Shown piece after piece: positions 4,014 through 24,258 of a stretch of 54,799 nt of DNA (positions are counted from its first letter, which is position 1; the number at the start of each line of letters is the position of its first letter). Origin of the DNA: a virus (Duplodnaviria; Caudoviricetes); IMG/VR virus record IMGVR_UViG_3300043399_000215, positions 1-54,799 of that record. One strand, 5' to 3'. The position numbers were made by a program, and so were the translations under genes. The notes below the pieces were generated by a model. That model had not been told where the DNA came from and ran no database searches. It saw only the letters and a program-made list of their open reading frames with translations.

Positions 4014-4285
4014 TTTTTCACTCCTAGTACATCTGAATGCAATATATCGCTTACAAAACCCATGTGCGTGTAATGCTCAAGGTGCTTTCGTCGTTGATTG
4101 TACAGCATAAGCATGGCATCTACAACTTGTTGAGGAAAACCTTGCCTAGTATTTTCCCTAGTATCTTGCAGCATGTAGTTCATCCACAAAGCTAGGATTT
4201 CGTCATCTTTCCAGTAAGCTGTGACGATATTACAGAGGTTTTTATAAGGTTTAAATACCTCTAGGTATTCTTCTAAAGTTTGCAT
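4010..4285 (-). CDS. hypothetical protein
   Basis: AAGGA RBS. Confidence 0.6.
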   Translation of the reverse strand: MQTLEEYLEVFKPYKNLCNIVTAYWKDDEILALWMNYMLQDTRENTRQGFPQQVVDAMLMLYNQRRKHLEHYTHMGFVSDILHSDVLGVKK

Positions 4286-4956
4286 TTGATTCCTTAACTA
4301 TTAGTCCTGACTTGCTCTACCACAGCCAACAGATTGTTTTGAATCTCAGGGCTTGACCATTGCAGATTATACACTTCTTTTTGTTCTTTACCAAGGTATC
4401 TTGCAATATAGTCCCCTTGTATAAGACAAAGTTGAATATCTTGAATAACTTGAGGCATTAAAACAACCCTTCTTCAATATCTGACAAGTCATGCTTGGTA
4501 GGTTTGAACTTCTGCTCAAGCAAGGCTTTGCTTTCTGATGTTCTTTCACTGTTGACTACAGGAAAAGGCCAGTTTGTAGGTTTGTCATCAGGTTTCATTC
4601 TTCTCCGCGCTTTTGCTTGCGTTGCTTCTCGTAGTCCTGCTTCTTGTCTTTCTTTTGTTTCTTATCTACAGGTTCTTCGTAACCAGCATCATCCCAATGA
4701 CTTCGTTTGTTAGTCTTCTTGGTCTGAAAGTAACTGCTTTGCATTTTATTCTCCAACTGCTTTAGCTTCGGTAAACACACCGTCACGGATGATTCGGATT
4801 GATTCTTCAGATAGCTCCCACTTCGCTCGCTCGACAAGATCACCATGTTCGTCACGCAGTAACGCTAGGCACAACTCGTTTTCAGTCATCGGTCGGTGCA
4901 GCGTTATCGTTTTGTCGTGTGTGTTGATCGTGTAGCTTTTTTGTTGTTTCATGCTT

Positions 4957-7582: not shown

Positions 7583-7676
7583 TTCATAAGGTTCTACGTT
7601 CTGAAAGCAACCAACTCCGCATGATACCTTGTTGCTCCAAGTTCGCAGTACGATAATAGTATTATCTGCACTAATT

Positions 7677-8489
7677 TTAATTCTCCTTTGTTGTTAACTT
7701 TATGAGGTCAGATTTTACGAGAGTGTTTCTAAATCCGATAGCAGCAACAAGAGCGTCTTCTTGATTATGAAAAGAAGTATTTCTCCCCATTCGAGCTTTT
7801 GGATTGAAAGAAAATGATTTTTGTTTTCTGGTACAATTGTCCGTCCAAGATACACAATACTCGTATCTTTTGCTTATTAACCTTATATTTTGAAATCCAC
7901 AATTAGACCCGGAGTGAGTACGATTTTTACAGTTATCAGACTGAGTAACTAATCTAAGATTGTCCGGTGAGTTATTTTTAGTATTTCCATCTATGTGATC
8001 TACAACAAGATTTGTTGAAACATCAATAGAGTGTTTTAAGCAGTAAATTACTCTGTGTATACCAAATGATTCACCATTTATTATGATACTTCCGTATTTA
8101 CTATTCTTACTTAAGCAACCTGCAACACTTCCAGATTTTTTAGCATTTGATTTGTCCACTCTCCATCGTAACCTTGTTGGTGATAAGTCATCATAGAGTA
8201 AAAGTTTTGAAATATCTTGATAACATATCGTTTTTACTTTACCTGCGTTTTTACGTTTATTAAAACGTAATGTATCATAGTGTTTATGTATTAAATTGTT
8301 CTCATAATCAATGGAATCAAATTTAGAAAGATTTTGTTCTATGATGATTTTATCTAATGTATCCCACATAGAGAGATGTTCGATTGTTCTACCATTTTTA
8401 GAATTATATCTAAGTCCGCAACCACTACCTATATATACTATACTGCCATTTAAAACATGCTTGTAAACATAATATTTATCAGCAGACAT
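7677..8489 (-). CDS. free-standing homing endonuclease, GIY-YIG-like N-domain plus HNH domain
   Basis: YVY...YIGSG; HRVIY...VVDHIDGNTKNNSPDNLRLVTQSDN; AT-rich relative to neighbours. Confidence 0.85.
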   Translation of the reverse strand: MSADKYYVYKHVLNGSIVYIGSGCGLRYNSKNGRTIEHLSMWDTLDKIIIEQNLSKFDSIDYENNLIHKHYDTLRFNKRKNAGKVKTICYQDISKLLLYDDLSPTRLRWRVDKSNAKKSGSVAGCLSKNSKYGSIIINGESFGIHRVIYCLKHSIDVSTNLVVDHIDGNTKNNSPDNLRLVTQSDNCKNRTHSGSNCGFQNIRLISKRYEYCVSWTDNCTRKQKSFSFNPKARMGRNTSFHNQEDALVAAIGFRNTLVKSDLIKLTTKEN

Positions 8490-8912
8490 TCAAATCCTTT
8501 CAACTTCTACGTTGTTACGATGCAAGTATTCTACACCAGATTCATCTCTGTATGCATGTCGGTAGTAAACTTTTTTGATACCTGCATCAACAATATCTAT
8601 AGCACAGAACTTACAGCAAGCATGAGTGCAGAATAGCACAGCACCAACTGCACTTTGGTTACTTCTGACAAGACCCATTAGGGCGTTCTTTTCGCTGTGC
8701 CTAACCCTGGGGTCTGTAGTACCGTCTTCTAGCTCGCAAGGGTCACTTATATGCTCTGCATGAGCATTGTAACCGCAAGAAATAATCCTGTTGTCTTTTA
8801 CGATTACACTACCAACCTTTAACCTTGTAGCGTTACTGCACTCAGCAAATGCTTCAGCGCATTTCATATAAGCTAGTTTATGCTTGGGTTTCATAGTCTT
8901 TCTACTTCCCAT
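8490..8912 (-). CDS. dCMP deaminase
   Basis: KVGSVIVKDNRIISCGYN, HSEKNAL, CxxC, IVDAGIKKVYY. Confidence 0.9.
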   Translation of the reverse strand: MGSRKTMKPKHKLAYMKCAEAFAECSNATRLKVGSVIVKDNRIISCGYNAHAEHISDPCELEDGTTDPRVRHSEKNALMGLVRSNQSAVGAVLFCTHACCKFCAIDIVDAGIKKVYYRHAYRDESGVEYLHRNNVEVERI

Positions 8913-9687: not shown

Positions 9688-10146
9688 TTATTTACCAAGT
9701 TTACGTTTGATTTTAGTCTGAATTTTACTCATTTTATTGAAGGTACTTTTGTAGCTTCGCATAATATCTTTAAGTTCGTTTAGAGATTTAAACTGAAACG
9801 TACTTGATGGGTCACTTGGGTCGCAATTATTCCATATCTTTGCAATAGTAGCTTTTAGTTGTTTCATGTACGCAGCTTCAAAGCTGAGGTTTTTATTCAA
9901 ATGACTTTTAAGAAACTGCAATTCTTCACGAGTCAATGCTGTTTCATCAGGGGTTGCAGGCTTAAGTACAAACGTCTTCGGGCCTTGAATACGAGGTGCT
10001 TTACCTGTAAGCAAAGTAGGTGTTTGGTTTGTCTTACCTTGCATAGCTTTCTCGCATTTTTCCCAGATAAGAGCAGCAAGATCAACCTCGTGGTCTTCCA
10101 ACCCAAGTTTGTTGATAACCAACCAGAAGTCTTTTTTCATCAGCAT
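9688..10146 (-). CDS. hypothetical protein
   Basis: own promoter (10176-10186) and AAAGGA RBS. Confidence 0.7.
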   Translation of the reverse strand: MLMKKDFWLVINKLGLEDHEVDLAALIWEKCEKAMQGKTNQTPTLLTGKAPRIQGPKTFVLKPATPDETALTREELQFLKSHLNKNLSFEAAYMKQLKATIAKIWNNCDPSDPSSTFQFKSLNELKDIMRSYKSTFNKMSKIQTKIKRKLGK

Positions 10147-10201
10147 AGAAGTCCTTTCGTTTGTTTAGATACCTGATTGTAGCATAGCTTGGGTGTGTTT
10201 T

Positions 10202-10912
10202 TCATGAATTCTTCTCACGTAGTTTGGCTTCGATGGCGCGGGCAAATTGTATCACAGAAGGCTGATATACCATAAATTCATCCCAATCCGCTTGATGCAA
10301 TGTAACACAATCTATTTCTTCAATTTCTTGCTCCGTCAACCCAACCCAGTTATGCTGCGGCTGGGGTGCGGTGCCCGGTGCTGGTGGCAGTGGCATCCAG
10401 TGAGTCGGCGGATACATGGACGCCCATTCGCTGGTCGTGTCCGTAACCCATCCATCGCGGCTGTGGCTCATGCCGACACACATCTCCAGTCGCTTTGCCC
10501 CGTATAGCAGCAAAGTCACATCCTTTGGCGCAGTCTCAATCGGTTGCCACGCCACCGGCTCCCCACGCTCCGCGCTTTGCTTGGGCTGCGGCTGGGGTGC
10601 GGTATGCCTCGCAATTCGGTTCGTGACCCGTTCCAGCAGTCTGGTGTTGTTGGTGCTGTGTCCGCAGTCAGACAGGATCATTTCTGCCAAGCGAACGTCA
10701 TCACATGACGGGTCAGGCTCCCCCGGAGTCAGCGCCTGCTCGATTTCGCGCTCCAGTTCGGGGCTGACTGGGTGGTGGTGCTGTGCCTCCAGCGCCTGCA
10801 CGATTGCGGTGCGGAGTTCTGCCATTGCAGAGTCGTGCTCTTTTAGGTGATGGGGTTTAAATGTGGAGCAGGCTTTTTTAACCAGCTCCATGATGTGTTC
10901 AATCTGGTTCAT
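10202..10912 (-). CDS. DUF551-domain mosaic phage protein
   Basis: WQPIETAPKD...PTHWMPLPPAP; WVGLT..E...FARAIEAKLREKN; GC-rich. Confidence 0.8.
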   Translation of the reverse strand: MNQIEHIMELVKKACSTFKPHHLKEHDSAMAELRTAIVQALEAQHHHPVSPELEREIEQALTPGEPDPSCDDVRLAEMILSDCGHSTNNTRLLERVTNRIARHTAPQPQPKQSAERGEPVAWQPIETAPKDVTLLLYGAKRLEMCVGMSHSRDGWVTDTTSEWASMYPPTHWMPLPPAPGTAPQPQHNWVGLTEQEIEEIDCVTLHQADWDEFMVYQPSVIQFARAIEAKLREKNS

Positions 10913-11136
10913 TTAACTTCTCCTGCCCGTGCGATAGTGGCTTCTGGCAATGGATGGTTGTAACAGGCGCACAACTCTTTCACTATTACTGCAAGCTCTT
11001 TAGCTACGCTACGCAGCGCCTCGTTTTCAGCATGAAGCCTTCGGAGTTCTGCGGCGGCATCTACAAACAGTGGGGCACCGGGTGGTACGTCCAATCTTTC
11101 AGCCAGCGCAATAGCCAGCGGGTGTTTAGTATTCAT
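10909..11136 (-). CDS. hypothetical protein (AAAELRRLHAENEALR family)
   Basis: first gene of the leftward unit; promoter and RBS present. Confidence 0.7.
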   Translation of the reverse strand: MNTKHPLAIALAERLDVPPGAPLFVDAAAELRRLHAENEALRSVAKELAVIVKELCACYNHPLPEATIARAGEVK

Positions 11137-13970: not shown

Positions 13971-14279
13971 ATGAACAAAGATAAACTTATTGAACTTGCT
14001 AAAGAAGCTGGTTTTGTTATTGATGAAGACAGCAGGAAGCACCAACCTAATTGTATTGTGCATACGCATTATTTGATTGATTCAGAGTTGATGCGTTTTG
14101 CTGAACTTGTTGCAGCAGCAGAGCGAGAGGCGTGTGCAAGATTGATACAGCCGTTTGCCATTGGAGAGTACCCAGCATTTAGCGGTAGGGACGACCCCGT
14201 TGATCTTGCTCTGTGTGCAGCCGCAGAGCGCATTCGAACAGTGAGCAACGGACTGCGCAAGGCACTTGGGGGAGTCTGA
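13971..14279 (+). CDS. hypothetical protein (MNKDKLIELAKEA...FAELVAAAEREAC family)
   Basis: start placed by near-identity of the 5' DNA to 13672. Confidence 0.7.
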   Translation: MNKDKLIELAKEAGFVIDEDSRKHQPNCIVHTHYLIDSELMRFAELVAAAEREACARLIQPFAIGEYPAFSGRDDPVDLALCAAAERIRTVSNGLRKALGGV

Positions 14280-14480
14280 ATGACCGACGAACTCAGAATC
14301 CAAGCCCTGCAAGCGGCACTTGACCAAGCGAACATGCAGATCATCGAACAGCGCGAGGTGATGGGGGTGGCGTTGGATGCGCTGAATGAAGTGTGGTACT
14401 CAAACACCACCTCCATCGCGCATCAGAAATTCACATTGGCGACAGAAGCACTGCGCGAAGCACTTGGAGAAACGGAATGA
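14280..14480 (+). CDS. hypothetical protein
   Basis: GGAG RBS; GC-richer segment. Confidence 0.6.
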   Translation: MTDELRIQALQAALDQANMQIIEQREVMGVALDALNEVWYSNTTSIAHQKFTLATEALREALGETE

Positions 14481-14693
14481 ACAAAATTATTTTGCGTATG
14501 ACACATCGGGTTTGGAACACTGCCATCAGTCGCATCCTTTGCCGCGCTTATTCACAAGGTCACATCAACTCAAGTCAACTGCATATTTTGGCATCAAAGT
14601 TTGACCCAACACAAAAACACGAGGTGTATTGATGGATTGCCCATATTGCCATGCGCCGAACAAATGGAAATGTTATTGCAGAAAGAGGAGCAA

Positions 14694-14876
14694 ATGAAAC
14701 ACCTCAAAACCGCAGCAATCCTGCTGGCTCCATTTGCAATCATGTACCTGCTGTTCGGCTTCGTGTTCTGGAACTGGGACGCGAAAAGCTGGGACGCGAT
14801 GGGTCTGTTTCTGTATGTCGTGCTGGTGGTTCCGCTTGTGATTGGAGCGACTGCTTTTGTGGAGGGGATGAAATGA
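14694..14876 (+). CDS. small two-TM membrane protein
   Basis: GAGGAG RBS; two hydrophobic stretches. Confidence 0.65.
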   Translation: MKHLKTAAILLAPFAIMYLLFGFVFWNWDAKSWDAMGLFLYVVLVVPLVIGATAFVEGMK

Positions 14877-15298
14877 CTTACTACCTACGCAACGCATGGG
14901 AAACACCTGATGGTACAATCATTGAAAGCAAGCATGGTTGGGACTATCAGGCTCATGAAGACAGTATCACCAAAGAATTCTATATGTGCGACAGCATTGG
15001 TTACTACATTCGTACAAGCGTTAACGAAGTACCAGCAAAGAGCCTCTGTGTAACAACAGACGATGACTTTGAAGTTCAGAGAGTTGTTAAATTTTGGGGT
15101 ACTTACGGTAAAGACGGTAAATCTGAGTTACAATACATATCACCAGCGGATATGACACAACTTCATATCAAGGCTGTTCTTAAAACTCAAAGTAAAATCT
15201 CTCCTGAAATAAGGAAAGTCTTTGAGCAAGAGTTGTTGTATCGCAAAGAAAAACGCTTGAATAAATTGAAAGGAAAGCAAGATGATATATACTGCTAA
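14873..15298 (+). CDS. conserved phage hypothetical protein
   Basis: RNAWETPDGTIIESKH..DY motif; ATGA overlap. Confidence 0.7.
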   Translation: MTYYLRNAWETPDGTIIESKHGWDYQAHEDSITKEFYMCDSIGYYIRTSVNEVPAKSLCVTTDDDFEVQRVVKFWGTYGKDGKSELQYISPADMTQLHIKAVLKTQSKISPEIRKVFEQELLYRKEKRLNKLKGKQDDIYC

Positions 15299-18587: not shown

Positions 18588-21500
18588 ATGAAGTACAACG
18601 GTTTTTCAATTGACATTGAAGCAGATGGTTTTGTGTTTGAAGCAACAAAGATTTGGGTTATCAACTTGGAAGACCTTGACACAGGTGATAAGTTGCAGTT
18701 GCATCCATTCAGAGACTCATTAGCAAAATCAAAGCTGCTGGATTGGGTTTCTAAGTACGATAACCCAAATGTCTGTTTTCACAATGGCTTGGGCTATGAT
18801 ATTTTTGTGCTTATGTTTATTCTCGGAATTGACTACTCCGTTGGCCCAGATAGTATTGAAGGTATTAAAGTAAATTTTGTTGATACTTTTTATTTGTCAA
18901 TGTTTCTTAACCCAGACCGTGAAAAGCACTCTATTGAATATTGGGGTGTTCAACTTGGAATGCCTAAGATTGATTTTCGTGATGCCTTGATCTCTGTTGG
19001 TGCGCTAGATTCCAATGCTCCCAATGGAGCTGAATTTTTGCGTTTCCACTCTATCATGAATGAGTATTGTGAGCGTGACACTCTTGTTGGTAAACTGACA
19101 TTTATTGCACTAATAAATGAGTGGGTTGAGTTGTACAAATCATGGGATTGCACAAAGTGGCCTGAGCATTTTAAAGCCGGTCAAAAAGCCTTCTACCTAA
19201 TGTCTTGCCAAGAATTGTCAGGTTGGAAATTTGATGTAGATGCTGCCAAGGAATTGCAAATCAAAATTGAACAAATGATGGAGGAGATACGTTCAGAGGT
19301 TGAACCTCAACTACCACCACGGAGCCTTAAAAAAACAGAAGAAAAAGAATACTCCATGCCAGCAAAGCCATTCAAACAAGATGGTTCTCTTTCTGCTGTG
19401 ATGGAAAAGTGGATTGCAAAGCATAGTGCAACTTATGATACAGAGAAAGATTGTATTACAGTCTACGGTAAGCAATACAAGATTGTTGCAAAGCAAATGC
19501 TTGATATTAAACTTCCAATGGAAATGGCAAACCAAGATCAGATGAAGGATTGGTTTTTGGAGCAGGGATGGAAACCTACCTTGTGGAATTATAAGCGCGG
19601 CCCTGATAACAAGCCAATACGCGACCCCGTTACTAGACAGCTTATCCCGACAACGCCAAAGATTCAAGAAGCAGGGAAACTCTGCCAGAACCTAGAAAAA
19701 ATTGAAGGCGATCTTGTCAAGAAAGTTGTCAAGTGGTTGTCACTTCGCAATAGGCAGTCTGTTTTGAATGGTTGGCTTGAAAACCCAAGGTTGCAATATG
19801 ATGGACGGATAGGTGCTGGTAGGACTGGTATTGCAGCTACACACCGACAAAAACACAAGGTCGTTGTTAATGTGCCAAAAGCAGACCCGAAGGTGCTACT
19901 TGGCTATGAATTTCGGTCACTTTGGATTACTGAGGATGGTATGTTAATTGCTGCTGGGGATGCTGCTGCACTTGAAGGTAGGGTTCAAGGGCACTATACG
20001 CACAAGTATGACAATGGCACCACTGCTGATGAATTACTGAAGGGCGATGTGCATAGTAAGAACGCTAATGCTTTCTATGGTGGCATTTATGATGAAGTCA
20101 GTAAAATATACAATGCACCTGATTTTGACAAGGAAAACCCAAAATGGAAACCGTACCGCAATAAAAGTAAGAACGGATTTTATTGCTTGCCGATGCATAC
20201 AAAGGTGTTGACAAGTGCAGGATGGAAGCTGTTTGGTGATATAGAGGTTGGTGAAGCATTGCCAACTTTTAATGCAAATACAGGTCTTGTCGAAATGGAT
20301 GCAGTTAAAGCGTTGCATCATTTCGATGACACTGAAGTATTTAAATTCAGTAACAAGTATGATTCGTTTCAATGCACTGAGAATCACCGCTGGTATGGAT
20401 GGAGGCGTTCAAAATCCAAGAAAGGCTCTAAGAAGATTTTTGGATACTTTGAAGCCAAGGATTTTACACAGGAGCATAACTTATTATTGACTGCTGCATT
20501 TACTGGCAATGACGGATGCACAATAAATGAAACAGAGGCTAAATTTATGGGGTACTTACTCTCAGATGGTTCCTACAAGTGGTCAGATAAGTCAAGCACT
20601 ACAAGTTCATCTTTCGGTAAGAAGAAGGCAATTTCAATGCAGGTTTGTCAATCCAGAAATAAGTTTTGGGAGGATATTCAAAATCTAATTGATGCTCTTG
20701 GAATGAAATACAACTTGCGTGAAGAAAAGAAAGAGAATGGGAATAATGTACTTCACTGGAAAATATCTCAACCTGACGCAAGGAGTTTCATAGACAGGGT
20801 TGTTGGGAATAGGCTTAACAAGCATGAAGTTAACTGGTCTGAGTGGGTTATGAAACTTAGTAGGAAATCTCTAGAGGCTTTCTACGAGGGCTTCTATAAC
20901 GGAGATGGTAACACCACTGGAAATCACGAGGTTGTCTCTCAGAATACTGGTAAAGTGCATGAAGGTATTGTCACGGCAATGCAACTGCTTGGGAAAGGTC
21001 GCGTTACCTTGAACAATCATCAAGGGTGGAAAGATAATATCTGTCAAGGCATACGGGTTCAGAAGCGTAAGCATCTGACCATGCAAGAGCAGTCAAAGGA
21101 GTCACTTGGAATTCAAGAGACTTTCTGCTTGACAACAGGGAACTCATCGTTTATTATTTGGCAGGATGATTTTATTGGGATTACAGGGAACTGCATTCTC
21201 TACGGCGGTGGAGCACCGAAGGTTGCATCTACTCTTGGTATTCCAGAAAAATACGGTAAAGAGGCTTTGGAGGCTTTCTGGGAGGCAAACCCAGGCACGA
21301 AAGACTTGAAGGAAAACCTTGAAAAATACTGGGAAGGTGCAGGTAAGAAGAAGTACCTCCCAGCCATTGATGGTAGAATCCTAATGACTCGTAAAAAATC
21401 AGCTTTACTGAATACTATATTTCAAAGCTGCGGCGGCATAACAATGGATTACGCTGGATGTTTTATGGACAAGTGGCTTGGGGGGATGCAGTGGGATGAA

Positions 21501-21713
21501 AAACGTAGGCCCTTCTATTTATACAAGGGTTTTACCGTAAGGAGGATTGGCTATATCCACGACGAATTGGAATATGAGTGCGATGCTGAGATTGCTAATG
21601 AAGTTGCCGGAATGATTGAAAAATCTATTGCAAAGGCAGGTGAATATCTTGGAATCAAAGTGCCACTTGTCGGTGAAGGTAAGGTTGGTAAAAACTGGAA
21701 AGAAGTTCACTAA
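18588..21713 (+). CDS. polA: family A DNA polymerase with 3'-5' exonuclease, intein-containing
   Basis: DIEAD, HNGLGYD, YCERD exonuclease motifs; DAAALEGR (A), RNKSKNGFY/CILYGGG (B), IHDE (C); promoter 18554-18564. Confidence 0.95.
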   Translation: MKYNGFSIDIEADGFVFEATKIWVINLEDLDTGDKLQLHPFRDSLAKSKLLDWVSKYDNPNVCFHNGLGYDIFVLMFILGIDYSVGPDSIEGIKVNFVDTFYLSMFLNPDREKHSIEYWGVQLGMPKIDFRDALISVGALDSNAPNGAEFLRFHSIMNEYCERDTLVGKLTFIALINEWVELYKSWDCTKWPEHFKAGQKAFYLMSCQELSGWKFDVDAAKELQIKIEQMMEEIRSEVEPQLPPRSLKKTEEKEYSMPAKPFKQDGSLSAVMEKWIAKHSATYDTEKDCITVYGKQYKIVAKQMLDIKLPMEMANQDQMKDWFLEQGWKPTLWNYKRGPDNKPIRDPVTRQLIPTTPKIQEAGKLCQNLEKIEGDLVKKVVKWLSLRNRQSVLNGWLENPRLQYDGRIGAGRTGIAATHRQKHKVVVNVPKADPKVLLGYEFRSLWITEDGMLIAAGDAAALEGRVQGHYTHKYDNGTTADELLKGDVHSKNANAFYGGIYDEVSKIYNAPDFDKENPKWKPYRNKSKNGFYCLPMHTKVLTSAGWKLFGDIEVGEALPTFNANTGLVEMDAVKALHHFDDTEVFKFSNKYDSFQCTENHRWYGWRRSKSKKGSKKIFGYFEAKDFTQEHNLLLTAAFTGNDGCTINETEAKFMGYLLSDGSYKWSDKSSTTSSSFGKKKAISMQVCQSRNKFWEDIQNLIDALGMKYNLREEKKENGNNVLHWKISQPDARSFIDRVVGNRLNKHEVNWSEWVMKLSRKSLEAFYEGFYNGDGNTTGNHEVVSQNTGKVHEGIVTAMQLLGKGRVTLNNHQGWKDNICQGIRVQKRKHLTMQEQSKESLGIQETFCLTTGNSSFIIWQDDFIGITGNCILYGGGAPKVASTLGIPEKYGKEALEAFWEANPGTKDLKENLEKYWEGAGKKKYLPAIDGRILMTRKKSALLNTIFQSCGGITMDYAGCFMDKWLGGMQWDEKRRPFYLYKGFTVRRIGYIHDELEYECDAEIANEVAGMIEKSIAKAGEYLGIKVPLVGEGKVGKNWKEVH
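20184..21191 (+). mobile_element. intein (336 aa) with LAGLIDADG endonuclease, inserted in polymerase motif B
   Basis: starts CLPMHTKVLT, block B CTENHRW, FMGYLLSDG / FYEGFYNGDG, ends ITGN before Cys+1; excision restores KNGFY-CILYG. Confidence 0.93.
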
Positions 21714-21929: not shown

Positions 21930-22574
21930 TGCAAAAACTTGAAATTTGGTTGTGTTCTGGTAAAGGTCAAAATTCTGTGCTATAATACGTTCTCAAGTTT
22001 ACAATAGGAGATTATTCATGAAGCCTTGGTGTCTGTGGTTGATAAAAAACCATCTAGGATGGTTGTTGAAAGCAATAATAGTTATGTCATATCCGGTGCA
22101 TCTACTGGCGTACTGCGAAGAAGCATGGGATGACATTTCGTATGTTCTCCGTGAAGTTTATTATGAAAAAGAATATATACAGAAAGGCTCATAATATGAG
22201 TTGGGGTGCATTACCTTGGTGGGTGTATGAATGCGAAAATGAGCGTTGTATTGCTATGCAGTCTTGCGCTTTTCCTGAAGAATTTTATTCGGGCACTCTG
22301 AAAACCTTACCAATGCATGTTATACTGATGCACACAGCTACATTCAGTAGCTACAAACCAAACGGTTGGAACTACGAAGGAGAATAAAGTTGAATTACCA
22401 GAACTTCAATTATCACTACTCTCAAGAATTCAAATGCTTGATTCAGACAGATGCTGAAGGTAAAGTTGTGATGGCAATGTACATGCCTGCTGAAGACTTA
22501 GAGAAAGTATCTTTCCTTGCTTGGGTACAATCAGCAGAAAATAATTTTGAGAATCTTGTAAAAGATGAAGAGAT

Positions 22575-22585
22575 TATGCTATAAT
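22575..22585 (+). promoter_or_regulatory. extended -10 promoter TATGCTATAAT for the RNA island
   Basis: perfect TGnTATAAT; a second one, TGTGTTATAAT, at 23147-23157. Confidence 0.75.
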
Positions 22586-22683
22586 GCGAATATAGAGGCA
22601 GTGTAGCACGCTGCAACTCAGTACTGAGATTGAGTACCAATCGGGTGCAAAGCCTGTCCAGTTGTGACTTAAGTGTATTTAGT

Positions 22684-22756
22684 CCGCGCATGGTGAAAAT
22701 GGAGATCACACAAATCTTCTAAATTTGGAGTCCTTGTTCGATTCAAGGTGTGCGGA
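22684..22756 (+). tRNA. tRNA-Arg(TCT), no encoded CCA (CTA follows)
   Basis: acceptor CCGCGCA/TGTGCGG, D arm GTGA/TCAC with GGA, anticodon arm CAAAT-CTTCTAA-ATTTG, T arm CCTTG-TTCGATT-CAAGG. Confidence 0.85.
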
Positions 22757-22774
22757 CTAAGTACATTTTAATTC

Positions 22775-23000
22775 AGCTTGATGGGTTGCCCTGAGTGCCT
22801 AGCACGAGGGAAGGTCTGGTAAACTACATGCCGTTGCACTCATAGTGCAGAGGGGCGGTAGACAGGCGGCAGCAACGCTGTAGTATCCTACGCAGCAGCT
22901 TGTTTACAGCGAGGCGTTTGTCTGAAAGTGCTTCTGTAATAGCACTCAAGAACTAACCTGTTGCATCGTGAGAGCAACGCCGGATTCTAGTAACCGGCAA
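22775..23000 (+). ncRNA. candidate multi-helix structured RNA
   Basis: no ORF; nested helices such as TGCACT/AGTGCA, AGACAGGCG/CGTTTGTCT, CGCTGTA/TACAGCG, AGTGCT/AGCACT, GCCGG/CCGGC. Confidence 0.5.
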
Positions 23001-23089
23001 CTATATTGAAATACTCTATAAAACATCGTCAAGGTTAGGGTTGCTCCAGTTCTAGGTAAAAACCTTTAGAGTATTTCAATATGGTAAAT
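23001..23089 (+). repeat. long-stem cassette, copy 1
   Basis: 18-bp stem 23001-18/23067-84; the 19-mer GTATTTCAATATGGTAAAT is shared with copy 2. Confidence 0.8.
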
Positions 23090-23173
23090 TTATCAAGATG
23101 TACTACCAGATTTATTTTAGTAGTACAGCTAAAAGTAAGTAAGATTTGTGTTATAATGAGTTTGTCCCGCCAC

Positions 23174-23258
23174 GCTTGTTACTCTATATCCCTATGGAGC
23201 CAGCAGCACACTTCGGTGAACCGCACTCACAGCGGTTGGTTAAAATAGAGTAACGAGT
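23174..23258 (+). ncRNA. long-stem cassette with cUUCGg hairpin
   Basis: 14-bp stem GCTTGTTACTCTAT/ATAGAGTAACGAGT just after the 23147 promoter. Confidence 0.55.
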
Positions 23259-23343
23259 TGCGTCGTTACCTACGGATTTCTAGCATGAGGGTCGTCGCCC
23301 GATAGTAAGAAGACTATGGAACCCAGCTTTAGGGAGTTGGGTG

Positions 23344-23439
23344 CCATATTGAAATGCACTAGATTTCTTTTATACTGTGCTGGACGTACTAAGCCACAGG
23401 CGGTATAGATTCCTTTTAGTGTATTTCAATATGGTAAAT
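23344..23439 (+). repeat. long-stem cassette, copy 2
   Basis: ~20-bp stem 23344-63/23415-34 with a compensatory change relative to copy 1. Confidence 0.8.
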
Positions 23440-23499
23440 CAAGTCTTGTTGGAGACTTTAATAACCAACAAATGTTTAACTCAAGAAAGGAAATTGAAT

Positions 23500-24111
23500 A
23501 TGAAAACTCTTAAAGGTACTTTGGTTTATGTAATGCTGGATAAGCCTCGTAACTGCTACGACGAAGCCAAGGGGCAAGAGTGGAAATGCGGTATTGTAGT
23601 GGATGAAGACACAGCAGATGCTTTTGCTGAAATTTACCCAAAGCAAGCTGCTAAGAAAGTTAAAATCGCAGACTTTGAAGAAACTTATAAGTGCAAGCCT
23701 CCAGAGGGAGCAGGTAAGAACGTTTATGTGATTACCTTGCGTAAGAATACAAAGTTGGCTAATGGAGAACCGGTCCCGGATAAGTACAAACCACGAGTGT
23801 TCCAGCGTAAAGGTGGTGCATTGGTTGATATTACAGCAACATCACTACCTGCTAATGGTTCAACTGGAGAAATCAGTATAGACCATTATGATGGGAAAAT
23901 GGGTGCTGTAGCTCGATTGAAGAACGTACTGGTAACTGACCTGATTGAATTTGAGCGCAGTAATTCAGCTTCTTACGAATCAGGTGACGAATTCGCAGAC
24001 GATGGTTCTGGTGACTCTGTCAAGGTTCCAGCCAAGGCTGTAGCTGCTGCAAGCAAGTCCAAGAAAGCTGTCCCTGCTTTGGATGAAGATGATGGTGATT
24101 CACCCTTCTGA
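23500..24111 (+). CDS. single-stranded DNA-binding protein (T7 gp2.5-like)
   Basis: GAAAGGA RBS; NGSTG motif; acidic tail ending DEDDGDSPF; replication context. Confidence 0.7.
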   Translation: MKTLKGTLVYVMLDKPRNCYDEAKGQEWKCGIVVDEDTADAFAEIYPKQAAKKVKIADFEETYKCKPPEGAGKNVYVITLRKNTKLANGEPVPDKYKPRVFQRKGGALVDITATSLPANGSTGEISIDHYDGKMGAVARLKNVLVTDLIEFERSNSASYESGDEFADDGSGDSVKVPAKAVAAASKSKKAVPALDEDDGDSPF

Positions 24112-24130: not shown

Positions 24131-24258
24131 GTTACAAACTGTCGGTACTTATTAACAAATGATGATAGTTTGTAACTGCTCACAAAGTTGCAGTATGTGG
24201 CACTTACTGATAAGTAACGAAAATTAATTACTTATTTAAAAGTGCTGCATATTGCAAC
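24131..24258 (+). other. two long intergenic RNA hairpins
   Basis: 14-bp (24131-24176) and 19-bp (24187-24258) stems with G-U pairs. Confidence 0.7.

Follow-up and report, generated by a model that had tools for sequence, protein, structure and literature searches.

A conserved sense-strand RNA helix recurs in the tRNA islands of uncultured phages and encloses variable, exchangeable inserts

The helices that flank the ribosomal RNAs, and those that separate the early mRNAs of phage T7, span about two turns and are cut by RNase III, which recognises the shape of such a helix rather than its sequence. The tRNA islands of phages have so far been described as sets of tRNA genes that compensate for codon usage or for attack by the host on tRNAs. 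In phage T4, two small RNAs without an assigned role are encoded directly after tRNA-Arg (PMC3014915), and the T4-type phages carry PeSL cassettes, promoter-stem-loop motifs between which recombination shuffles open reading frames (ORFs; PMC2839356, PMC4122927). The present analysis concerns the RNA island at 22590-23440 of a 54.8-kb IMG/VR virus record (IMGVR_UViG_3300043399_000215, completeness estimate 66%), whose full length of 54,799 nucleotides is referred to below as the window, and in particular two cassettes of that island, each of which consists of a short insert enclosed by a long stem of shared sequence. The islands of many uncultured phages also hold this second organised layer. 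An earlier note, made from the letters of the window, had proposed a polycistronic small-RNA system in which a double-strand-specific nuclease releases several effector RNAs; its observation is confirmed and extended here, and its interpretation is partly supported. The stem as a family signature in dozens of uncultured phages, its abutment on CCA ends and the exchange of inserts all go beyond that note.

Cassette 1 (23000-23089, plus strand) has a stem of 19 bp around an insert of 48 nt, with a TAAAT tail, and 19-nt arms (23000-23018 and 23067-23085) that are 95% complementary, while cassette 2 (23344-23439, plus strand) has a stem of 18-20 bp that opens at a CCA, a 55-nt insert and the same tail, with 18-nt arms (23344-23361 and 23417-23434) that are 94% complementary. 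Each is predicted to fold as a single long closed stem, at -28.3 kcal/mol (z-score -6.0) and -40.0 kcal/mol (z -8.0), respectively, and 0 of 200 shuffled sequences folded as well in either case. The 3' arm and tail together form a 25-nt direct repeat (23065-23089 and 23415-23439, 96% identical) and the 5' arms (23003-23018 and 23346-23361) are 88% identical, which bears out the description of two cassettes with a shared stem and a TAAAT tail; the compensatory T-A/A-T pair and the G-U wobble between them are readable directly in the sequence. The surrounding island is equally non-coding, as had been claimed for about 850 nt without a credible ORF: the longest plus-strand ORF within 22590-23440 has 55 amino acids, and its frame is lost in L005, a close relative with 96% identity. 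Folding of the whole island yields -306.9 kcal/mol on the plus strand (z -8.7) and -250.4 kcal/mol on the minus strand (z -5.9), and the Rfam scan that the earlier note had called for recognised tRNA as the sole family at or above the gathering threshold in the window.

The shared stem defines a family well beyond this phage. The exact 19-nt 3' arm with its tail occurs in three contigs, including the close relative (L002/L005) and L003, a different phage with 32 tRNAs in which the 3' arm completes a hairpin starting from the CCA of tRNA-Gln; an exact match of arm and tail in L004 lies inside a coding stretch and was set aside as chance. Both arm cores at a gap of 45-75 nt were matched in 58 IMG/VR loci, and in 50 of these the helix extends through the positions left free by the pattern, almost always in phage tRNA arrays, the other eight being dismissed as random pairing or coding sequence. 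Among 185,579 prokaryote genomes the same pattern matched 56 times, only three times with an extended stem, and all three lie in dense tRNA arrays on contigs of metagenome-assembled genomes that are most likely mis-binned phage. A looser scan of all collected loci, which required the outer 8-mers and at least seven of eight inner pairs, returned 106 sites, representing 83 distinct sequences in 50 loci. Covariance model R1, built from 57 cassette sequences (alignment A2), gave 232 matches at E <= 0.1 in 45 loci, with both strands counted and diverged copies included; within the window it finds exactly the two cassettes and no further copy (plus and minus strand: 56.6 and 47.7 bits for cassette 1, 59.7 and 49.2 bits for cassette 2). 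A pattern search allowing two mismatches in the records of three relatives was equalled by its reversed-pattern control and was discarded. A two-arm pattern at a fixed spacing of 93 nt, with no stem, was seen in unrelated bacteria and archaea (L077, L079, L084, L093, L104, L115 and L117), where it is probably a conserved coding motif.

The family is widespread in uncultured, apparently freshwater phages, and as an RNA family it looks new. R1 matched neither the T4 tRNA region nor the Pseudomonas phage loci examined, no counterpart of 22400-23600 was retrieved by blastn from 50,697 phage records, and blastn of a stretch with three cassettes (L028 2990-3745) at E <= 10 gave only tRNA T-arm or chance matches; by these blastn searches the arms were found in no cultured phage. 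Rfam searches over 14 loci identified, among the best 150 of 181 matches, tRNA, permuted or beta-type transfer-messenger RNA (tmRNA) and group I intron, none of them over a cassette. A literature search by arm strings and by hairpins or RNAs of phage tRNA clusters, with supplementary files outside its reach, found no published description of the element. The earlier statement that no described RNA family fits thus stands, with tRNA as the only family that Rfam recognises in the window.

In the family, the two flanks of a unit pair into a helix of 18-19 bp, about two turns long, which has a nearly fixed sequence and is uninterrupted or nearly so (5' arm CCAUAUUGAA(G/A)UACAUU, 3' arm AGUGUAUUUCAAUAUGG); the stems of the window measure 18-21 bp. 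The family alignment has 19 pairs with 97% of cells paired, a figure that arises partly by construction from rows chosen by exact outer 8-mers and a pairing filter, and that to this extent counts against the reading preferred below; the informative evidence for a helix is the strand test and the changes on both sides of pairs. For the strand test, orientation was set by pairing alone and then compared with the strand of the tRNAs within 1.5 kb, the commonest form of the stem having two wobble pairs that become A-C mismatches on the opposite strand. Pairing orientation equalled tRNA strand at 89 of 89 decidable sites, the rest of the 106 being made up of 13 ties, one site without a nearby tRNA and three with one tRNA on each strand. 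At one stem position 68 of 82 rows have U-G, and at another 41 of 82 have G-U. In alignment A2, 9 of 19 pairs (60 cells) are changed on both sides, a result reached by 0 of 500 shuffles, and slid controls pair only 29-50%; R1 also scores higher on the sense than on the antisense strand. Helices of other sequence occur as well: L006, syntenic with the window, shows a 19-bp stem of different sequence ahead of the same gene (protein 72% identical), L037 carries another variant sequence with the fold kept, and at L003 2700-2795 the outer bases are replaced on both sides with the helix kept at 21 bp. The helix is a sense-strand RNA, because the strand compatible with G-U pairing is the tRNA strand at every decidable site, and the plus-strand helix read from the two cassettes of the window is thereby upheld for the family.

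It is highly improbable that the hairpins act instead in single-stranded DNA, whether as integron attC-like sites or as a replication origin near the replication genes. The size of the elements (about 65-145 nt) resembles the range usually given for attC sites, their content behaves like cassettes, and the island of the window lies between the DNA polymerase and exonuclease genes. However, DNA hairpins accommodate G-T pairs poorly next to the way RNA accommodates G-U pairs, and the stems are uninterrupted and without the bulged bases typical of attC sites; the arms end in ATATTGAA / TTCAATAT, so that the attC core and extrahelical bases are lacking. No integrase turned up, although no search was aimed at integrases, and the presence of the elements in transcribed tRNA arrays of many unrelated phages argues against an origin.

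The position of the helix within the islands is equally precise, as it opens at, or one base after, the CCA of an upstream tRNA or tRNA-like hairpin and closes just before the next RNA. The terminal A of the upstream tRNA, as called by ARAGORN, is the first A of the stem core in 21 of the 83 distinct cassettes, and at those junctions the CC ahead of the core is paired with the GG that follows the 3' arm. On the other side, the last conserved stem base is followed directly by the start of a tRNA in 11 of 83. NCC precedes the cassette in 57 of 83 and GGT follows it in 58 of 83. Cassettes that lack a preceding tRNA often follow an RNA whose end is a small hairpin plus NCCA, as is the case for the two upstream RNAs of the window. 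A tRNA lies within 1.5 kb of 105 of the 106 sites, the two cassettes of the window having only the single tRNA-Arg nearby. Many islands alternate promoters, GC-rich RNAs of 100-400 nt without a family, and cassettes: L040 5500-7750 (minus strand) has more than 2 kb without ORF-like content, in which several TATAAT promoters, at least five cassettes and GC-rich RNAs of 100-400 nt follow one another, and no Rfam family was recognised in it except one tRNA at 7615-7689.

Helix length and placement at unit boundaries fit a model in which, by analogy with rRNA operons and the early transcripts of T7, the stem serves as a punctuation signal made of double-stranded RNA, to be cut by an enzyme of the RNase III type, a reading that we hold with even confidence for and against. 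Under this model the signal would stand in polycistronic transcripts of tRNAs, small RNAs and mRNAs; its helix of about two turns would be the substrate of an endonuclease specific for double strands, for which host RNase III is the most plausible candidate, and cutting would part the units. The ordinary tRNA-end enzymes would trim the short tails that remain, and the insert would be set free as a short hairpin RNA. In the window, the units released by such cuts would be the tRNA-Arg, two structured RNAs of larger size and the mRNA that starts the next gene, at 23500; at the DNA level, the same arms serve as junctions for the exchange of inserts between phages. The location of cassette 2, which lies in the 5' leader of the gene at 23500, between RNA-2 (described below) and that gene, fits this model, as does a further long hairpin in the next intergenic gap.

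The coincidence of helix ends with tRNA boundaries also admits an alternative, which we regard as possible if clearly the less probable, namely that the stem is a handle and the cassette a stable small RNA that owes its ends to the normal maturation of tRNA ends. RNase P would act on the 3' side, and the 5' side would arise through 3' trimming at the upstream CCA. The conserved terminal helix, nearly blunt, would shield the RNA and be bound by a single sequence-specific protein of phage or host origin, and the variable inserts would be payloads (decoys, sponges or tRNA mimics) in a logic resembling that of Y RNAs. The exact coincidence in the 21 and 11 cassettes mentioned above speaks for it, since tRNA processing alone would then release a near-blunt hairpin, and the conserved stem sequence with its fixed U-G is typical of protein recognition. 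However, many cassettes have no following tRNA, so RNase P could not make their 3' end, and no candidate binding protein is common to all carriers. Among the 50 cassette-bearing loci, the commonest island proteins are a metallophosphoesterase in 20, PF04308 (RNaseH-like) in 13 and a WYL_2 Sm-like protein in 8 (example loci are L003 5786-6433, L003 3463-3948 and L013 2399-2695), with HNH endonucleases and a radical SAM protein also seen, and none of these three occurs in all 50. PF04308, the sole island protein family searched for in the contig of the window, was not found there, the contig being 66% complete.

The inserts measure 27-101 nt and differ nearly from copy to copy, the 83 of them falling into 66 similarity classes. 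They fold weakly (mean z -0.61, with 7% of 83 below -2), and the description of the inserts as structured, taken from the two copies in the window, is therefore only weakly true across the family. Nor was the notion of effector RNAs borne out, as the inserts are barely above shuffles in structure and, in the complementarity check against phage transcripts, the two inserts of the window showed no excess against the window's own transcripts. Two specific roles were rejected: that of antisense RNAs directed at genes of the phage itself, since complementary runs reach no more than 10-12 nt, which is within the shuffle range, and that of CsrA/RsmA sponges, GGA and A-N-GGA being unenriched (z -1.4 and -0.9). 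Each of these results (the number of classes, the weak folding, the unenriched GGA and the lack of excess complementarity) also tells against the stem as a handle for payloads. That reading gains from the inserts that are conserved across distant phages, and from the T-arm-like hairpin that stands next to the 3' arm in about 10 of the 66 classes; one T-arm-bearing class of five members has compensated stem changes, and the insert of cassette 2 has a homologue at L003 2711-2786 (79.5% over 78 nt, E 1.8e-11). Since some inserts are conserved in this way between distant phages, as in these two cases, an insert can apparently matter in its own right, which is a point against a stem that does no more than separate units. 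Two further sequences of the islands, at L003 596-690 and L006 3700-3800, are tRNA-like, with a T-arm plus terminal CCA or an acceptor-like stem, and received no call from ARAGORN; one follows a cassette and the other follows tRNA-Met.

Inserts and surroundings reassort. More than one insert class was present in 10 of 20 recurrent upstream contexts, one of which held 7 classes in 8 loci, and 9 of 18 recurrent insert classes were found in more than one context. In metagenomes, where the comparison used DNA contigs, a freshwater contig matches 23196-23353 with four differences and then passes, from inside the 5' arm, into a different insert, and another contig carries 22772-23106 directly after a different tRNA 3' end. 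Because inserts and contexts reassort and a contig breakpoint falls inside an arm, the conserved arms are also junctions of modular exchange between phages.

This exchange invites the reading of the element as a selfish or recombinational DNA cassette, palindromic with terminal inverted repeats, which is spread by recombination or by some transposase and tolerated only where its folding yields a harmless RNA hairpin. The terminal inverted arms are conserved and the interiors unrelated, different inserts occur in the same context and the same insert in different contexts, a natural contig breakpoint lies inside an arm, and conserved stem-loop cassettes that drive modular shuffling in phages provide a precedent (PMC2839356). 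The outer ATAT is palindromic, and a 2-bp target-site duplication would be indistinguishable from the stem. We nevertheless consider a DNA-only element unlikely, because insertion either way round would not give the strict strand asymmetry of 89 of 89 decidable sites or wobbles at fixed positions. The sites are in addition not scattered, a tRNA being within 1.5 kb at 105 of 106, the stem starts at the CCA with single-base precision, R1 finds no copy elsewhere in the window, and no transposase was seen among the recurrent island proteins of the 50 loci in a search that was not exhaustive.

The tRNA-Arg(TCT) of the island is caged at 22671-22770 (plus strand), the tRNA proper occupying 22684-22757 (Rfam, 53.7 bits) with no encoded CCA; its acceptor stem is prolonged by 13 further pairs (arms 22671-22697 and 22742-22768) and so runs on as a 20-bp helix, with cage sequences AAGTGTATTTAGT / ACTAAGTACATTT and a fold z of -6.5. 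The upstream arm of the cage resembles the 3' arm of the family and the downstream arm its 5' arm, the order thus being swapped, and its two G-U pairs are compatible with the plus strand only. The caged tRNA that the earlier note had drawn is accordingly retained, now with family-like arms. The third stem of that note, which reuses TACTCTA/TAGAGTA in common with cassette 1, is present as well, though weaker than the cassette stems: its 13-nt arms (23175-23187 and 23245-23257) are 92% complementary with a fold z of -3.7, and in L005 it is weakened by a T-to-C change and two 1-nt deletions at the loop end. A fourth long hairpin, missed by the note, lies at 24187-24258 (plus strand) in the intergenic gap after the gene at 23500-24111; its stem of 19 bp includes three G-U pairs and is accompanied by a 3x3 internal loop and an inner stem of 9 bp (-35.6 kcal/mol, z -8.6), and the hairpin matches R1 weakly at 11.4 bits. 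In an inverted-repeat scan of the whole window this hairpin ranks first, with the tRNA cage and the two cassettes among the closest-matching pairs after it, so that the four strongest hairpins of 54.8 kb all lie within 22.67-24.26 kb, between RNA units or genes; by this ranking, long sense-strand hairpins are a local speciality of that region. The caged tRNA without CCA inside a 20-bp helix fits the model of a punctuation signal.

Several observations nevertheless weigh against a cleaved punctuation signal. Cleavage, the enzyme and any function of an insert are what we infer from sequence and predicted folds, and for cleavage this inference is the whole of the case. RNase III (PF14622) was not found in the contig of the window, itself 66% complete. 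Most tRNA spacers in the same islands have no cassette, and L003 combines 32 tRNAs with only two R1 matches; the release of a tRNA therefore needs no cassette, which on the handle reading would make the cassette look like a gene in its own right. Furthermore, because RNase III reads the shape of a helix, it leaves the conservation of the stem sequence and of the U-G wobble across very different phages without explanation, and a handle accounts better for that conservation, for the fixed wobble and for those inserts that are conserved. A combined reading, which is rather improbable at present, would have one sequence-specific terminal helix act both as the handle of a dsRNA-binding protein or nuclease and as a recombination junction for payload RNAs, in a phage "RNA cassette library". 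Phages sharing a habitat would then swap a large repertoire of small RNAs in their tRNA islands, much as integrons do with genes but for non-coding RNAs, and the payloads could be tRNA mimics or decoys against host defences that attack tRNAs.

The earlier reading as a non-coding island of several RNA units is supported, with sigma-70-like promoters ahead of it. Both extended -10 promoters are present, as consensus matches only: promoter 1 (22556-22585, plus strand; TTGTAA-18-TATAAT with TG before the -10; 10/12) and the promoter-like TGTTATAAT at 23149-23157 (plus strand), which has no -35 match and hence is absent from the promoter-scan list. The whole-island fold places a leader RNA with two small hairpins (22593-22670, plus strand) upstream of the caged tRNA, and in L005 this leader has several substitutions that are not clearly compensatory. 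Between the tRNA and cassette 1, a GC-rich structured RNA of about 230 nt (22772-22999, plus strand, from the fold) has no Rfam match; it terminates in the hairpin GCCGGA..CCGGC followed by AACTA, and the same terminal hairpin in L062 is followed by AACCA and a cassette. That this RNA is a piece of tmRNA was ruled out, as ARAGORN and Rfam at E <= 10 gave nothing. A small hairpin, found as an inverted-repeat pair (23096-23106 / 23120-23130, plus strand), follows cassette 1. RNA-2 (23165-23346, plus strand) contains the third stem, here 23174-23258, and a terminal hairpin with loop CTTTAGGGAG, and its 3' end is GCCA, with the CCA at 23344-23346; at 23291-23310, L005 has 52 nt in place of 18 nt. 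Terminal hairpins of this type (loop CTTTAGGGAG) followed by CC recur before cassettes in L035, L064 and L075, and in L037 the hairpin is followed by CAT and the variant stem. The gene downstream (23500-24111, plus strand) encodes a protein of 203 amino acids that matches phrog_3877 (E 5e-6) and has no assigned function; it is probably co-transcribed from promoter 2, and it was through relatives of this protein that the syntenic loci L005-L010 were found.

The source phage has a T7-like replication module of primase-helicase, DNA polymerase and exonuclease, and by its DNA polymerase the nearest cultured relative is the marine Pseudomonas phage vB_PsaM_M1 (Ounavirinae; 60.8% identity over 68% of the protein), in which an HNH endonuclease gene follows the polymerase gene. 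The polymerase itself (18588-21713, 1041 amino acids) matches its family in two stretches, residues 6-532 and 870-1041, and the roughly 340 residues between them, for which the family match gives no explanation, could be an intein or another insertion. The GC content of the window spikes to 0.52 at 10001-11000 and 0.49 at 14001-15000, compared with about 0.40 elsewhere. Among the other loci, the phage tRNA island of L062 contains a group I intron at 4150-4348 (minus strand, 58.8 bits), and L040 encodes a two-piece (permuted, beta-type) tmRNA at 8258-8602 (minus strand, 111 bits), which hints, as a weak guess, at a betaproteobacterial host.

Taken as a whole, the islands present a shared stem that punctuates arrays, touches tRNA CCA ends and frames diverse exchangeable small RNAs beside larger structured RNAs to which no family is assigned. 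R1 provides a new RNA family model that can be used for searching, and the finding points to how non-coding modules move between phages. Should a specific protein prove to read the stem, the stem could be put to use for freeing small RNAs of chosen design from polycistronic transcripts.

The cassettes share single features with several known systems and differ from each. The intervening segment of the two-piece tmRNA in L040 likewise places a hairpin between an encoded CCA and the 5' end of the next RNA piece, which is the coding one, but its sequence is different and it is a single copy without a shared module. In the TMERs of murine gammaherpesvirus 68, which are pre-miRNA hairpins linked to tRNAs, a viral tRNA-like unit has the hairpins directly after it, and processing of the tRNA 3' end releases them; these belong, however, to a eukaryotic virus with different transcription and processing machinery, and their hairpins have no shared stem sequence. 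The Correia elements of Neisseria have terminal inverted repeats too, and their transcribed hairpins are substrates of RNase III, whereas the cassettes, compared with such miniature inverted-repeat elements, occur in one orientation and in RNA islands only, with unrelated interiors and no known transposase. Y RNAs and YrlA also combine a terminal stem made from the two RNA ends with a variable or tRNA-like module, yet the cassettes have no match to Rfam Y RNA and their stem has no bulge or internal loop. The T4 RNAs RNAC and RNAD (species 1 and 2) resemble the cassettes as non-coding RNAs directly beside phage tRNA genes, and rnaC (species 1; L131 1909-2047) has a T-arm-like hairpin near its 3' end, which makes it tRNA-like in the manner of some cassette inserts; species 1 RNA is reportedly cut by RNase III in vitro. 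Unlike the cassettes, rnaC and rnaD have no long conserved terminal stem and no R1 match, and their folds differ. The stems cut by RNase III in rrn and T7 transcripts are similar in that the flanks pair into a helix of about two turns that marks units, tRNAs among them, in a polycistronic transcript; the sequence of the cassette stem, in contrast to these, is conserved across unrelated phages with a fixed U-G, and the cassettes begin at a CCA end and enclose short variable inserts rather than a functional RNA. Finally, the PeSL cassettes share with the present elements the exchange of an intervening module by recombination between repeated conserved motifs. A PeSL, however, consists of an early promoter and a terminator flanking ORFs, while the arms of the cassettes hold no promoter and enclose a non-coding insert of 27-101 nt; they are the two arms of one hairpin, they lie in tRNA islands, and they covary at the level of RNA.

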